IMG/VR virus record: IMGVR_UViG_3300006149_000003
Strand: one strand, 5' to 3'
Source of the DNA: a virus
Lineage: Duplodnaviria; Heunggongvirae; Uroviricota; Caudoviricetes
Length of the DNA stretch: 59,241 bases
Shown here: piece after piece, positions 7,302 through 12,496 of the stretch
Numbering within the stretch: the stretch's first letter is position 1
How the letters are laid out: the number at the start of each line of letters is the position of its first letter
The notes under the pieces: generated by a model
What the model was told of the DNA's origin: nothing
Databases searched by the model: none
The model's input: only the letters and a program-made list of their open reading frames with translations
Made by a program: the position numbers and the translations under genes

Positions 7302-7369
7302 ATTTTGTTCGCCGCTATTGACATCTGGTTCAGAGCGTGCTATACTATAACCATAGCGGCGAACAAAAT
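7302..7369. repeat. Perfect 17 bp inverted repeats bracketing a promoter
   Basis: ATTTTGTTCGCCGCTAT (7302-7318) and ATAGCGGCGAACAAAAT (7353-7369). Confidence 0.95.
7318..7346 (+). promoter_or_regulatory. Near-consensus sigma-A promoter driving the RNA operon
   Basis: TTGACA (7318-7323), 17 nt spacer, TATACT (7341-7346). Confidence 0.85.
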
Positions 7370-7372
7370 CAA

Positions 7373-7387
7373 TGTTCCTTGAAAATT
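7373..7387 (+). promoter_or_regulatory. boxA-like antitermination element
   Basis: TGTTCCTTGAAAATT resembles Firmicute rRNA-leader boxA; lies just after the predicted +1 of a long untranslated operon. Confidence 0.45.
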
Positions 7388-8013
7388 TAATCTTTGCATC
7401 ATGCTTATTACTAACTCGGTGAACAAAGTGTGTCAGCACTCCGAGGCGTATGGTATTTTCGGTTTGACTTGGCGATTGTCTATGGACATCGTAGCATAGG
7501 GATACCTTTCAAGTGAGGCCGCTACTGTACAGTGATGTACGGTGGGGAGGCGGAAACCGCCAACAGAAACATATGTCGCCAAGAGTTATCGCTTCATAAC
7601 GCACAGAACTTTCGGGCGCAACAATAGACGCTCCTGTGGAGAATAAGCCTTGCAGTAGCTCGGTGTGGTAGCCGAGAGATACGGAGGTAAAACCAACAAT
7701 GCGCTCCTGTCTTGATGTCGGAGAAATCCGGCTATAACGAAAGTCACTGGTTAGAGTAGCCGTAGGACAGATTGCAAAATCTTTTGAAGAAATTACTATA
7801 AAAGTAAGTATTTAATTCAAAACTTTTCTGAACGAACGGTGAAATTTGTGAGTAAACAGGCTCACGTAGGAGGTGGCGCTATGGCGCTGGGGCAAGAAGT
7901 TAGGGGTCGCTCCCCGAAGCTCAGACTTGTCTCCCTGGTGGCGGAACAATGAAGAAGATTATGGAGGTAGGGCGAAGGCCCAGTGGTGAGTATGATGGAA
8001 AGATTAAATTTTC
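7381..8013 (+). ncRNA. Large structured ncRNA, ROOL-like
   Basis: 7381-7412 pairs with 7982-8013 over 32 positions (one G.G mismatch, four G.U pairs). No long ORF; many internal hairpins; ~630 nt; next to phage tRNAs. Family assignment is from recalled motifs only. Confidence 0.7.
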
Positions 8014-8039
8014 CTTAGAAACAAACAAAATCAATGTAT

Positions 8040-8115
8040 GGGGTTGTAGCTCAGTTGGGAGAGCGCCTGTTTTGCAAGCAGGAGGTCGGGAGTTCGATCC
8101 TCCCTAATTCCACCA
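8040..8115 (+). tRNA. tRNA-Ala(UGC)
   Basis: Cloverleaf; loop TTTGCAA; G3.U70; CCA encoded. Confidence 0.92.
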
Positions 8116-8229
8116 GCAAGATATGTTGGTTATGCTGACGCTTGTGTGGTTCAGTTCATTACTTAACTACTATTCCTGTCAGAAACCTATCGGTCATGAA
8201 CGAGGTTCTTCGGACGCATATCGCTAAAT

Positions 8230-8305
8230 CGGGATATAGCTCAGTTGGTAGAGCACACGACTGATAATCGTGCGGTCAGAAGTTCAATTCTTCTCGTCCC
8301 GACCA
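8230..8305 (+). tRNA. tRNA-Ile(GAU)
   Basis: Cloverleaf; loop CTGATAA; CCA. Confidence 0.92.
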
Positions 8306-8328
8306 TAGGTACTTTGACAATTCTATAT

Positions 8329-8753
8329 GGGGCCGTTTTTAGATTCGACGGGGTTTTGAGAGTGCAAGACTCACAGGTAGATGACCGCCTAAAGGCATAC
8401 CTAAAAATGAAATGACAACACTGAATCTGTTGTAATGATCCACCCCGCTTTTGCTGCTTTTGTGGCTGAGAGGGCTGCTGCCTGATTGGTGGCTGGATTC
8501 CAAAACGACGCACCAGCTGGATATGGGTAAGCGTCTGCGGTTAAAGAATCATCCAGCACGTGCAGTTTCTCCTTGTGCTTCTGTAAAATAAAGACAAGGT
8601 GGTGGAGGTGTACAAACCAGTACGCCCTAGGAAAGATTTGACGGTATCGCAAGTGCCCGCCGCAAGGCATCGCTGGAAAATCGTCTATTGTGTAAGAAGG
8701 TCTTGCTCATGTAGGAATTTCGGACAGGGGTGCGAATCCCCTCGGCTCCACCA
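8329..8753 (+). ncRNA. ssrA: tmRNA
   Basis: 5' GGGGCCG...GATTCGAC; 3' T-arm and CGGCTCCACCA with G3.U70; internal frame 8414-8485 encodes DNTESVVMIHPAFAAFVAERAAA-stop. Confidence 0.93.
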
Positions 8754-8760
8754 TACATAG

Positions 8761-8813
8761 GGACACTAACAGCAATTTATAATTTTTTAAGGTAAAAAAG
8801 AAAAAAAGTGTCC
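8761..8813 (+). ncRNA. Small stem-ACAGCAA RNA candidate, copy A
   Basis: 7 bp closing stem GGACACT/AGTGTCC followed by AACAGCAA. Confidence 0.5.
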
Positions 8814-8816
8814 TGT

Positions 8817-8903
8817 GAGACGCGCACAGCAAATTTTCAAAATATTCTATCAAATGTTTTTTAAGTCCGACAAGGATAACCACCTCCATTTTTTTCGCGT
8901 CTC
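8817..8903 (+). ncRNA. Small stem-ACAGCAA RNA candidate, copy B
   Basis: 8 bp closing stem GAGACGCG/CGCGTCTC followed by CACAGCAA. Confidence 0.5.
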
Positions 8904-8916
8904 GTAGCCTAAGTAT

Positions 8917-8993
8917 TGGCGGGTAGCTCAGATGGCAGTAGCATCTGACTGTTAATCAGAGGGTCGTGGGTTCGAGTCCCACCCTGCCAGCCA
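8917..8993 (+). tRNA. tRNA-Asn(GUU)
   Basis: Cloverleaf; loop CTGTTAA; irregular D-arm; CCA. Confidence 0.9.
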
Positions 8994-9069
8994 GTAGCTC
9001 AAAACATGGCAGAGAGTTTACAGGCAACTGATGTCTACATCGGTGCTGTTTTTAGAACTGCCAACATAT

Positions 9070-9145
9070 AGCGGGATAGAGAAGCGGTCATCTCGTCATC
9101 CTCATAAGTTGGAGATCGTGGGTTCGAGTCCCACTCCCGCCACCA
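9070..9145 (+). tRNA. tRNA-Met(CAU), initiator-like
   Basis: Loop CTCATAA; unpaired 1:72 (A.C); A11-U24; weak anticodon stem; CCA. Confidence 0.8.
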
Positions 9146-9302
9146 TGCCCACCCCACAAACAGAGCGGAGACTGTAAACTGAATGGGGAATAGAAATGTT
9201 CACAATCTGGCAGTGAAAACTTTTAGCAGGTTTCAAGCGAAACCGCTGCGTCCCAACAGCAGAGAGTTGGCACCATGGCCTACGGTGTGAGTAGGTCAAT
9301 AT

Positions 9303-9378
9303 GTGGGAATAGCTCAACTGGTAGAGCGCCGTCCTTCCAAGTCGGATGTTGCGGGTTCAAGTCCCGTTTCTCACTCCA
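9303..9378 (+). tRNA. tRNA-Gly(UCC)
   Basis: Cloverleaf; loop CTTCCAA; CCA. Confidence 0.92.
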
Positions 9379-10971: not shown

Positions 10972-11047
10972 GGCCTCGTAGCTCAATCGGAAGAGCGCCA
11001 GCCTGTCACGCTGGAGGTAGCGGGATCGAAACCCGCCGAGGTCGCCA
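10972..11047 (+). tRNA. tRNA-Asp(GUC)
   Basis: Cloverleaf; loop CTGTCAC; T-loop ATCGAAA; CCA. Confidence 0.9.
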
Positions 11048-11050
11048 TAT

Positions 11051-11124
11051 AGGGGTCTGGTGTAACGGTAGCATGAAAGTCTCCAAAACTTTTGGTGAGA
11101 GTTCAAATCTTTCGGCCCCTGCCA
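11051..11124 (+). tRNA. tRNA-Trp(CCA)
   Basis: Cloverleaf; loop CTCCAAA; CCA. Confidence 0.92.
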
Positions 11125-11125
11125 T

Positions 11126-11201
11126 GCTGACGTAGCTCCAATGGTAGAGCAGTTGTTTCGTAAGCAGCGGGTTCAGAGTTCGAGTCTCTGCGTCAGCTCC
11201 A
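11126..11201 (+). tRNA. tRNA-Thr(CGU)
   Basis: Cloverleaf; loop TTCGTAA; CCA. Confidence 0.9.
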
Positions 11202-11204
11202 TTT

Positions 11205-11280
11205 GCTGGTGTAGCTCTAATGGTAGAGCAACCGTTTTGTAAGCGGTGGGTTCTGGGTTCGAGTCCCTGCACCAGCTCCA
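11205..11280 (+). tRNA. tRNA-Thr(UGU)
   Basis: Cloverleaf; loop TTTGTAA; CCA. Confidence 0.9.
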
Positions 11281-11284
11281 TATT

Positions 11285-11620
11285 TGCCCGATTGAGATAA
11301 CATATCACGGCTGTGAGTGGCGGTCGTAATCCAAGGTGGCCTCCTGTGAGGGAGTGACTGGGCATAAAAGAAAGAGCGGTTAGGTAGCGTTGTACTATCG
11401 AGGGCGTTGCGGAAGCTGCGCACAGGCCATAGCCGCACACAGATGGCAACAGCCACGTAACTGCGGAAGCGTGGATATGTGCAACGGATGTCATGTACAT
11501 CGAAATACCTTGGTAGACTCAGATGGGAAACACTAATCCCCCTGCTCCCCGATAGAAAGGCTGAAATATGGCACAGCGTAAAGGTGTGTGGTGAGGCTGG
11601 GAGTGGAGTCACTTATGCAA
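11285..11620 (+). ncRNA. Unassigned large structured RNA candidate
   Basis: Nested and crossing helices, e.g. 11395-11404/11547-11555, 11406-11410/11481-11485, 11353-11359/11607-11613; no RBS-led ORF. Confidence 0.55.
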
Positions 11621-11627
11621 TTTATAT

Positions 11628-11714
11628 AGGGGAGCGCCAGAGTTGGAGAGCTGGGGCGGACTGTAAATCCGTTGCTTTCGGGCTGAGTGGGTTCGATTCC
11701 CACCTCCCCTACCA
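11628..11714 (+). tRNA. tRNA-Tyr(GUA)
   Basis: Cloverleaf with variable arm; loop CTGTAAA; CCA. Confidence 0.88.
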
Positions 11715-11765
11715 CAAGTGTTTGTTGCTACCCGATATGCAACTAAAACAAGGTCGGGTTCAAAT

Positions 11766-11856
11766 GGCGGAGTGGCCGAGTGGTTGATGGCACCAGTCCT
11801 GAAAACTGGAGGCGGTGATGAGCCGTCCGTGGGTTCAAATCCCACCTCCGTCGCCA
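11766..11856 (+). tRNA. tRNA-Ser(UGA), C at position 33
   Basis: Long variable arm; G73; loop CCTGAAA; CCA. Confidence 0.88.
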
Positions 11857-11989
11857 ACGGGATGTGTTGATATTTACCATTTTCTAACGACCCTATGATA
11901 AACGGTACGAAAAGGCGTTACCCCTACGAAACGGGCGGTGGTCTTATGCGCTGACCTGTGATTACCGTTAAACAAAAATGCGCATATAT

Positions 11990-12066
11990 GGGTTGATGGC
12001 TTATGAGGTCTGAGCGACGGTCTGAAAAACCGTAGGATGAAGGATCGTTACCTTCTCAACCCACCA
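11990..12066 (+). tRNA. tRNA-Phe(GAA), atypical D- and T-loops
   Basis: GGGTTGA/TCAACCC acceptor; ACGGT-CTGAAAA-ACCGT; T-loop ATCGTTA; ACCA. Confidence 0.75.
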
Positions 12067-12360
12067 GCCTGAAAAGGCACACCTCTACCCTGGATGACGT
12101 GTGACGGTTCTGACACGTCGGTAAAATAAAAATTGACCGAGTGTGGGTAGCATAGGGGTCGCTCCCTCCGGTGAAATTCCGGCGCAGGCAAAACGCGATA
12201 GATAACCTAAACGCTGTAAGCAAAGCGGCATAGCCGATCAGGAGCGCGGCGGGCTAACATACCCCAACGGGACTTCGAGAGCCTGAAAAAGTATGTTTTG
12301 CACCCGTATCAGTGAGGGTAGGCCAGTGGGATACGGCCACACAGACCCTACCCACCCTTA
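12067..12360 (+). ncRNA. Large structured RNA candidate (possibly GOLLD 3'-domain-like)
   Basis: Dense 6-7 bp helices and a 3' pseudoknot (12304-12310/12330-12336 crossing 12316-12322/12347-12353); shares two motifs with the ROOL-like RNA. Confidence 0.55.
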
Positions 12361-12365
12361 TATAT

Positions 12366-12441
12366 GCGCCTGTAGCTCAGTTGGTAGAGCAGCTGGCTTT
12401 TAACCAGTTGGCCGGGGGTTCGAGTCCCTTTAGGCGCACCA
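12366..12441 (+). tRNA. tRNA-Lys(UUU)
   Basis: Cloverleaf; loop CTTTTAA; CCA. Confidence 0.93.
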
Positions 12442-12463
12442 GCAAAATACTATAACGACTAAA

Positions 12464-12496
12464 AAAACCTCGGGATCTTCGGATTTCCGAGGTTTT
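12464..12496 (+). terminator. Terminator closing the RNA operon (possibly bidirectional)
   Basis: AAAACCTCGGG-ATC-TTCG-GAT-TTCCGAGGTTTT. Confidence 0.75.

Follow-up and report, generated by a model that had tools for sequence, protein, structure and literature searches.

Large, highly conserved RNAs with complex folds are rare in bacteria and phages, and RNase P, group I and group II introns, OLE, GOLLD, ROOL and raiA each proved biochemically remarkable. Two of them, ROOL and GOLLD, occur near phage or prophage tRNA islands (10.1101/2024.12.08.627333, PMC5737381), and an RNA-only multimeric cage is known for other ROOL members (10.1101/2024.12.08.627333). Non-tRNA stable RNAs are also found in the tRNA region of phage T4, where RNAC and RNAD are co-transcribed with the cluster and thought to be freed by tRNA processing (PMC3014915), and phage tRNAs themselves counter tRNA-cutting defences, including anticodon nucleases and retron effectors (PMC10264068, PMC11555353). 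Here we describe a tRNA array in a 59,241-nucleotide stretch of a tailed phage (IMG/VR record IMGVR_UViG_3300006149_000003, hereafter the window), which also carries a ROOL RNA, a transfer-messenger RNA (tmRNA) and at least four families of conserved, folded RNA. These match no catalogued family and all show compensatory changes; they are elements A, B and C and a tRNA-like scaffold that lacks an anticodon (TLS). The reading that we favour, and hold to be probable, is that this locus forms the stable-RNA island of a gut Clostridia phage with a temperate lifestyle, a hotspot of separate accessory RNAs punctuated by tRNAs and not one machine. Public runs containing the stretch stem from the gut metagenomes of mice and rats, and the presence of integrase, terminase and portal genes in the window indicates a temperate phage.

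The locus resembles the described systems in part. Its full-length ROOL directly upstream of a phage tRNA array is the described context, and A shares with ROOL and GOLLD a large size, a complex fold and an occurrence in phages both beside tRNAs and apart from them; however, no match to either model was obtained for A, B or C, A has about half the length of ROOL, and only two short words of the ROOL consensus recur in B. The GOLLD model of Rfam found nothing in the window at the gathering score, and nothing in the region when the cut-off was set to E<=5 or E<=10. As in T4, non-tRNA stable RNAs lie within a phage tRNA cluster, and we infer their release here; but where T4 has 8 tRNAs and two small RNAs, the window holds 19 tRNAs, ROOL and a tmRNA, and beyond these at least four families, including one of ~340 nt. 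The placement of ROOL and tmRNA next to phage tRNAs is already known, and the novelty lies in the spacer RNAs.

A preliminary description of the region, made from the sequence alone, had pointed to large RNA candidates that we call A and B (Table 1) and to several small ones, and these are real conserved structures. Homologues of A were collected by nhmmer and by pattern scans of genome and metagenome collections, giving a family of 36 distinct full-length copies (279-407 nt) in rodent and human gut phage contigs, including human-gut contigs and metagenome-assembled genomes titled Oscillospiraceae, Clostridia and Clostridiales. In an alignment of 14 distinct homologues (A1), long invariant blocks, among them GGGAAACACuAAUCCCCCUGCUCC and GCGUAAAGG...GGGAGuGGAGUCACU, are interrupted by hairpins of variable length. 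From these 14 sequences RNAalifold predicts 80 pairs, of which 21 show compensatory changes, with conservation of many G:U pairs; in 300 column shuffles the observed pairing, covarying-pair count or score was never reached, and the signal was lost when the partners were slid. Since G:U pairs are conserved, A and B can both be placed on the transcribed strand. A putative pseudoknot between a hairpin loop and the 3' tail of A finds some, limited support in the change of GAGUG/CACUU to GAGUA/UACUU in two homologues (L094, L089). The pairing of AGUGACU (11353) with AGUCACU (11607), put forward in the preliminary description, was discarded, its 5' partner not being kept in L094 and L096. Neither the window copy of A nor 14 other copies matched Rfam 15 at E<=10; the RNaseP_bact_a (RF00010) and Cobalamin (RF00174) models found nothing in A or B at E<=10 on G002, a 14.9-kb record identical to part of the window; and near and distant BLAST searches of A and B against 50,697 GenBank phages returned nothing except tRNA fragments. 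No tRNA lies within 2.5 kb of 22 of the 36 copies of A, and 13 tRNA-less loci hold no other Rfam family. In L113 and L115 A directly follows exonuclease/HU-like open reading frames (ORFs), the slot that the array takes in the window. Remnants of A with an internal deletion, the first ~55 nt joined to the last ~48 nt, were seen at L037:16068-16168 and L046:16137-16237.

In the window tRNA-Tyr, tRNA-Ser and tRNA-Phe lie between A and B, and GUAAAGGUGUGU in A (about 11579-11590) could pair at 11 of 12 positions with GCACACCUCUAC in the 5' flank of B (about 12077-12088). GOLLD linkers sometimes contain tRNAs (10.1101/2024.12.08.627333), and on this analogy A and B could be two domains of one giant GOLLD-like RNA pairing across the three tRNAs. 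The B-side strand is nevertheless confined to the lineage of the window, L017 and L082, the sequence there being unrelated in the L037 group, while the A-side strand belongs to a local covarying hairpin (alignment columns 405-410/417-423). The order is B then A in L044 and L045, and A occurs without B in 22 stand-alone copies. On its distribution and on the competing covarying local helices we reject such a giant RNA as highly improbable.

The core motif of B was recovered from 102 IMG/VR stretches representing 72 distinct sequences. In an alignment of 71 sequences (A4) the fold comprises 33 pairs, 19 of them compensatory, with 98.5% of cells paired, and was not matched in any of 300 shuffles; its helices are P1 (GGG-UCGCU-CCC), P2 (CCGG-UGAAAGC-CCGG), P3, P4, P5, and P6 around P7. 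B gave no match to Rfam 15, even at very permissive thresholds, and several identities were considered and rejected. As a circularly permuted raiA (RF03072) it had no match at E<=10 on G002, although circular permutation could hide part of such a match. As a relative of cobalamin riboswitches it had no model match at E<=10, and the GGUGAAAGUCCGG word is a simple hairpin whose stem covaries. As a mini RNase P it again had no match at E<=10, and the P4-like pairing AAGUCC/GGACUU is disrupted without compensation in the lineage of the window (GAAAUUCC). It is not part of D12-methyl (RF02950) either, given no match at E<=10 and the absence of this motif from the window and G002. The 5' part of B shares GGGUCGCUCCC and GGUGAAA with the ROOL consensus; these words are short, in another order and missing in several B copies. 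A kissing interaction between the GGGUCGCUCCC hairpin and ROOL was dismissed on finding hairpin-less B in phages with ROOL and hairpin-bearing B in phages without it.

B is present ahead of terS in about 100 smaller phage contigs, and in every context examined it lies 250-650 nt upstream of terS/terL and is followed by further conserved non-coding sequence. In small gut phages (20-45-kb contigs) a single tRNA or a truncated tRNA-like element is followed directly by B, and at 11 of 11 such loci the D12-methyl motif lies 3' of B, ahead of an intrinsic terminator and the terS ribosome-binding site (RBS). D12-methyl and B thus share the same pre-terS non-coding block, although B is a separate ~150-nt structure upstream of the motif. 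In the window the order is tRNA-Phe, B, tRNA-Lys, terminator and packaging genes. This setting, together with sequence conservation at the level of riboswitches, suggests the main alternative for B, namely that B, and possibly further elements on the 3' side, acts in cis as a leader of the late/packaging operon, either a processive antiterminator or a ligand or protein sensor controlling terminator read-through. We consider this unlikely, though it is the most serious competitor and is compatible with the rest of the favoured model: a complete tRNA separates B from the terminator in the window, which would make a poor classical expression platform; a tRNA or tRNA-like element usually stands directly before B, as for a processed stand-alone RNA; and in 2 of 3 informative runs the RNA contigs with B are far deeper than downstream genes, which a stable product fits better. 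At four loci (L160:7016-7073, L157:3315-3372, L128:3049-3106 and L129:3171-3228) a partial match of ~58 nt to the tRNA model, devoid of an anticodon arm, directly precedes B, which suggests minimal tRNA-like processing handles. In one relative the Phe-Lys spacer is 847 nt long (L024:1183-2029) and holds a 142-aa ORF after B, which may be an insertion of the homing-endonuclease type. When the family to which the nearest genome belongs was scanned with a covariance model of B, only 2 of 150 genomes carried it, which fits sporadic prophage carriage.

Both elements bear on the view that the spacer elements are functionless, i.e. decayed tRNAs, ROOL fragments, processing signals or selfish insertions in a recombination hotspot. 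The mosaic nature of the island, the joined remnants of A in L037 and L046 (5' 55 nt plus 3' 48 nt), the derivation of TLS from a tRNA-Leu-like gene, the ROOL words GGGUCGCUCCC and GGUGAAA in B and the homing-endonuclease-sized ORFs of some spacers would all agree with it. However, A and B keep long invariant stretches though neighbouring proteins are only 47-91% identical, their compensatory pairing is maintained (97-98% of cells paired, a level reached by 0 of 300 shuffles), and they recur in unrelated phage backbones from rodent and human gut, which decay would not preserve; the words shared with ROOL are short, reordered and absent from several B copies. We therefore regard this view as very improbable.

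Two further spacer RNAs are conserved and show compensatory changes. Element C has 28 predicted pairs, 10 of them compensatory, with no non-canonical pair among 364 cells, and no Rfam match. TLS ends in an acceptor-like helix that covaries between variants (AUGUGG/CCACAU, AUGCGG/CCGCAU, AUACGG/CCGUAU and AUGUAG/CUACAU), and displays a Leu-type D arm (GGCGGAAUAGGUAGACGC), a covarying 6-bp T stem and the T loop UGCAAAU; this T loop and that of the phage tmRNA have the same unusual G at position 55. A hypervariable insert of 50-150 nt takes the place of the anticodon arm, and CCA is lacking except in the L087 copy. As a canonical tRNA, TLS was called neither by ARAGORN (also with intron options) nor by the Rfam tRNA model at E<=5. 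In three copies (L099:63-269, L104:2311-2517 and L107:2112-2329) a second insertion of ~90 nt lies in the D loop (GGCGGAAUAG...insert...AGUAGACGC), so that the inserts are nested. A further copy of 237 nt (L034:410-646) lies outside the tRNA array, about 9.5 kb upstream of the exonuclease gene. In E. coli, spacers of tRNA precursors act as sponges of small RNAs, and tRNA-operon spacers would be a source of RNA in our locus too. Anticodon-less acceptor/T-arm handles likewise recall the tRNA-like domain of tmRNA, from which TLS differs in having no CCA or tag ORF and in carrying the hypervariable 50-150-nt insert. Bacterial YrlA is a tRNA mimic whose ends form the Ro-binding stem (PMC4201824), in contrast to TLS, which has acceptor, D and T arms at its ends.

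The smaller elements include three conserved hairpins of the form stem plus ACAGCAA, with a different stem in each; the first two show the conserved sequences GGGACACUnACAGCAA...GUGUCCC and GAGACGCnnACAGCAA...GCGUCUC. Relatives have tRNA-Pro and then ACAGCAA hairpins where the window has the hairpins at 8761-8903. The third hairpin encloses a stem-loop (9718-9732) whose loop, CUUUUAA, equals the anticodon loop of tRNA-Lys(UUU); this inner stem covaries in L076 (UAGA/UCUA), and the loop is the Asn-type CUGUUAA in L054 and L082. For such possible decoys, i.e. the anticodon stem-loop look-alike and the anticodon-less TLS, we know of no described counterpart.

With respect to the known components, ARAGORN and Rfam returned an identical set of 19 tRNAs, all on the plus strand between 8040 and 12441, which bears out the earlier count. 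They found no tRNA for Arg, His, Pro or Val in the whole 59-kb window, again as described, and ARAGORN with intron options and lowered thresholds revealed no hidden one in the spacers. CCA is encoded in all 19 tRNAs and in the tmRNA, and 19 of these 20 RNAs have U at position -1, mostly within an AUAU leader, a pattern that suits RNase P substrates. The tmRNA of the preliminary description was also recovered. Its 5' GGGGCCG pairs with CGGCUCC, followed by ACCA, and includes a G3:U70 pair; the tag ORF (8414-8485) reads DNTESVVMIHPAFAAFVAERAAA in frame up to a stop codon and ends in a hydrophobic, Ala-rich C terminus. ARAGORN made no call on the window copy itself and did call the orthologue in L018/L035, whose tag, DNTETVIMIHPAFATMLAEKVAA, differs from the window tag by substitutions only. 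ROOL, with a closing helix reaching about 7381-8013, ends 39 nt upstream of tRNA-Ala and so has the phage location near a tRNA island. The boxA-like stretch that had been read at ~7374-7389 turned out to be the 5' strand of this closing helix, and its words are present only in relatives with ROOL directly downstream of the promoter. The word ACAAAAUCAAUGU flanks the ROOL gene, once just past the promoter (7364-7376) and once just before tRNA-Ala (8027-8039), and in relatives devoid of ROOL tRNA-Ala closely follows the promoter; flanking copies would be expected if ROOL were a cassette inserted at the junction of promoter and tRNA-Ala.

In order to follow the parts across phages, we collected ~70 IMG/VR loci through two flanking proteins, among them about 20 distinct contigs with a syntenic array. 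The tRNA order is conserved, reading Ala, Ile, tmRNA, Pro, Asn, Met, (Val), Gly, Leu, Leu, Cys, (Arg), Gln, Glu, Glu, Asp and then (His), Trp, Thr, Thr, (Lys-CUU), Tyr, Ser, Phe, Lys. The Pro, Val, Arg and His tRNAs hold fixed slots in relatives, and their absence from the window is therefore a loss in its lineage, not a design. Nearly all spacers are conserved (66-96% identity), and some contain homing-endonuclease-sized ORFs. Among the ~20 contigs, ROOL, tmRNA, A, B, TLS and single tRNAs have been gained and lost independently; ROOL homologues are present in 7 related contigs only, and the nearest genome (G001) has no ROOL and matches the island at the tRNA level only.

This independence speaks to the coordinated translation-protection module proposed in the preliminary description, which in full would be a single co-regulated operon in which tRNAs would replace those that are cut, the tmRNA would rescue ribosomes, ROOL and the large RNAs would shield or store, and the small RNAs would act as decoys for nucleases. 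A single strong conserved promoter and a single terminator enclose all the parts, which lie on one strand; tRNAs of phages are known to act against tRNA-cutting defences (PMC10264068, PMC11555353); and it has been proposed that tRNAs are enclosed in ROOL cages (10.1101/2024.12.08.627333). The free-standing stem-loop has the exact tRNA-Lys(UUU) anticodon loop on a covarying stem, with the Asn loop in two relatives, and the anticodon-less TLS could be a decoy for enzymes that read the tRNA body. As in counter-defence tRNA arrays, the set is large and near-complete and includes, among other known nuclease targets, tRNA-Lys(UUU), tRNA-Asn and tRNA-Tyr. A role in translation protection is plausible by analogy with the literature on phage tRNAs and anticodon nucleases, and the Lys/Asn look-alike fits it. 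However, the parts come and go independently in close relatives, A and B mostly occur apart from tRNA arrays, ROOL and tmRNA, B stands ahead of terS in other phages, four tRNA species are simply lost in the window lineage, and an antisense protein gene interrupts the array at a point where the RNA contig depth drops. Coordination of the module is thus not borne out, and we judge the single operon improbable, somewhat more so than a leader function of B.

The region had also been described as RNA-only and transcribed as one operon from one promoter. A strong promoter and a strong terminator are indeed present: 9 aligned relatives all have the same -35 hexamer and TGnTAT part, and the final terminator, a hairpin with a U-run as reported, lies in a region kept in 24 loci. 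The RNA-only character did not survive, since both short ORFs (76 aa on the plus strand and 65 aa on the minus strand) are conserved protein genes. The 76-aa protein has 15 homologous clusters (66-96% identity) and no Pfam or PHROG family match, and its gene recurs in 17 tRNA-array spacers of relatives; the 65-aa protein has 30 homologous clusters (56-98% identity), its antisense gene being present only in the window lineage and L039/L043. This antisense gene, a weak promoter-like site at 10303-10332, contigs that start upstream of the promoter and a drop in depth all count against one promoter and one operon, and the region comprises two protein genes and probably more than one transcription unit.

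The RNA evidence consists of metatranscriptome contigs, whose depths are contig means that include neighbouring tRNAs and which cannot define transcripts; parts left uncovered and contig breaks at tRNAs are no evidence about transcripts. The region is present in RNA libraries of 4 mouse-gut studies, and in 3 of the 4 the depth of island contigs is 5-70 times that of neighbouring genes. RNA contigs of three independent mouse-gut metatranscriptomes start upstream, at ~5205-5290. Depth is 170-1017x up to ~9802, drops by a factor of 10-100 at ~9800-10400, with 8-45x over the antisense gene and mid-array, and is back to 130-155x over 11051-12338 in 2 of 3 runs, with flanking genes at 2-25x. Contigs over A (11051-12119 and 11414-12338) have a depth of 130-155 compared with 8-15 in the flanks, a contig over ROOL (7537-7992) reaches 4879 in run X19, and another RNA contig, of run X17, ends at 12504, a weak hint only. 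Such depths show that the region is present in RNA libraries at uneven abundance, but they do not give the ends of transcripts. The promoter itself lies in the loop of an inverted repeat whose arms covary in nine relatives (GCCGC/GCGGC, GCTGC/GCAGC, GTCGC/GCGAC and GTTGC/GCAAC) while -35 and -10 stay constant. In read-through RNA from the HU gene the repeat would form a long perfect stem, possibly a site of the RNase III type; an invertible promoter switch at 7303-7368 is unlikely, given that the arms covary as in invertons but the segment between them spans only 34 bp.

Bacterial tRNA operons are thought to yield spacer-derived RNAs through tRNA processing, and from the arrangement above we infer a comparable route for the island, as well as any functions of A, B, C and TLS. 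The island lies between recombination/HU genes and packaging genes, at the border of the early and late modules. The strong conserved promoter, upstream read-through and a probable second start after the antisense gene would give long precursors, in which the tRNAs would be both products and punctuation, with host RNase P and 3'-end enzymes cutting at each tRNA or tRNA-like element. Such cuts would free ROOL, tmRNA, A, B, C, TLS with its variable insert and the small ACAGCAA hairpins. The tRNAs and tmRNA would then supplement or replace the host translation supply during infection, possibly against tRNA-cutting defences, and ROOL would build its known cage (10.1101/2024.12.08.627333). A, B, C and TLS would be independently mobile RNAs acting separately, most probably in trans on RNA-handling or defence proteins of host or phage. 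Several points weigh against this picture. The predicted fold of A differs between two alignments, with partly unlike long-range helices, and is not settled; the RNA data are at contig level, as means that include neighbouring tRNAs, so that discrete spacer-RNA species, their ends and processing sites are presumptive; the constant position of B upstream of a terminator and terS would suit a cis-acting leader too; and large candidate catalogues may already include these families without a name (PMC10690425).

Concerning novelty, the expectation that some non-tRNA parts would be undescribed was borne out by the searches with Rfam and ARAGORN and by the analysis of spacer covariation: besides ROOL and tmRNA, spacers are conserved and structured, and A, B, C and TLS covary and match no family of Rfam 15 at very permissive thresholds. 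No mention of the spacer families was found in the literature, the candidate catalogues not being searchable by sequence; a catalogue of candidate RNAs from IMG/VR is restricted to 29-151 nt (PMC10690425). A and B have real prospects of being new RNA classes. We propose, tentatively and at slightly less than even confidence, that A is an undescribed class of large phage RNA (~280-410 nt) in the league of ROOL, GOLLD and raiA, that B (~150 nt) is a second, much more widespread class marking the pre-terminase block of gut Clostridia phages, and that with C and TLS they form a toolkit released by tRNA processing and acting in trans on host tRNA, translation or defence machinery. The number of distinct sequences (36 for A and 72 for B), the covariation and the presence in gut metatranscriptomes are sufficient to begin work on structure and function. 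Relatives differing by single RNA modules offer a natural setting in which to ask about the role of ROOL, and TLS with its hypervariable inserts, together with the free-standing Lys/Asn anticodon loop, gives testable ideas on decoy RNAs in the conflict over tRNA cleavage.

Table 1. Features of the RNA island and of other parts of the window (positions in the 59,241-nt stretch)
Feature	Position	Strand	Evidence or remark
Exonuclease and HU genes	upstream of RNA block		gene annotation
Inverted-repeat arms, 16 nt	7303-7318 / 7353-7368	+	promoter in their 34-nt loop
Sigma-70-type promoter, TTGACA-17-TGcTATACT	7318-7346	+	11/12 matches, extended -10 TG present
ROOL RNA (RF03087)	7391-8000	+	348.5 bits vs gathering 99.1, model 1-574, E = 8e-80
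tRNA-Ala(UGC)	8040-8115	+	ARAGORN, Rfam
Element C, ~105-nt multi-helix RNA, Ala-Ile spacer	8116-8229	+	13 distinct homologues
tRNA-Ile(GAU)	8230-8305	+	ARAGORN, Rfam
tmRNA (RF00023)	8329-8753	+	72 bits vs gathering score 47
Two stem + ACAGCAA hairpins	8761-8813, 8817-8903	+	conserved in 8 distinct sequences
tRNA-Asn, tRNA-Met, tRNA-Gly	within 8917-9378	+	ARAGORN, Rfam
Asn-Met spacer hairpin with U-run	8994-9069	+	13 pairs, 9 compensatory, but 24/117 cells non-canonical
Met-Gly spacer RNA	9146-9302	+	12 distinct sequences, 8 compensatory pairs
Gly-Leu spacer, 224 nt, candidate structured RNA	9379-9602	+	3 distinct homologues only
tRNA-Leu(UAG), tRNA-Leu(CAA), tRNA-Cys	within 9603-10037	+	ARAGORN, Rfam
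Third ACAGCAA hairpin	9689-9750	+	7-bp outer stem: 3 compensatory pairs, 0/56 non-canonical cells
Leu-Cys spacer	between tRNA-Leu(CAA) and tRNA-Cys, within 9603-10037	+	
65-aa protein gene	10071-10268	-	own RBS; own terminator 10046-10063
tRNA-Gln, tRNA-Glu(UUC), tRNA-Glu(CUC)	within 10341-10722	+	ARAGORN, Rfam
Anticodon-less TLS	10417-10555	+	12 distinct variants
76-aa protein gene	10738-10968	+	RBS AAGAGGAG
tRNA-Asp, tRNA-Trp, tRNA-Thr(CGU), tRNA-Thr(UGU)	10972-11280	+	gaps of 1-3 nt
Element A, ~340-nt complex-folded RNA	11283-11626	+	conservation, covariation, no catalogued family
tRNA-Tyr, tRNA-Ser(UGA), tRNA-Phe	within 11628-12066	+	ARAGORN, Rfam
Tyr-Ser spacer	between tRNA-Tyr and tRNA-Ser(UGA)	+	
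Ser-Phe spacer	11857-11989	+	9 loci, 78-90% identity; structure support weak
Element B region	12067-12365	+	core ~12153-12300, helices P1-P7; 5'/3' extensions lineage-specific
tRNA-Lys(UUU)	12366-12441	+	ARAGORN, Rfam; before terminator
Intrinsic terminator, hairpin + U-run	12467-12496	+	z = -4.7
First packaging-module gene	RBS + ATG at 12523		directly after terminator
phrog_3314 protein, TerL, portal	downstream of RNA block		gene annotation
ClpP-family protease gene	24881-25528		
DUF6273 protein	45270-47294		upstream of RVT_1 ORF
RT-2 RNA (RF03077)	48363-48580		154.7 bits; overlaps 5' end of reverse-transcriptase ORF (RVT_1, 48353-49747)
Second tyrosine recombinase	51778-52812		
Tn916-type integrase	56466-57818	-	

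Among the remaining spacers, the Gly-Leu spacer has 53 predicted pairs, 12 of them compensatory, with 10 of 159 cells non-canonical, and its support as a structured RNA is weak. The Asn-Met spacer contains a terminator-like site (9027-9044), with a conserved GUUUUUAG run after the hairpin and an outer stem around both; high-depth RNA contigs continue through it. Outside the island, the RT-2 RNA, the RVT_1 ORF and the DUF6273 protein together are probably a diversity-generating retroelement, and the TTG start of the RVT_1 ORF is probably set too far upstream. Finally, the genes for a tmRNA and for a Clp-type protease are both carried by this one temperate phage.

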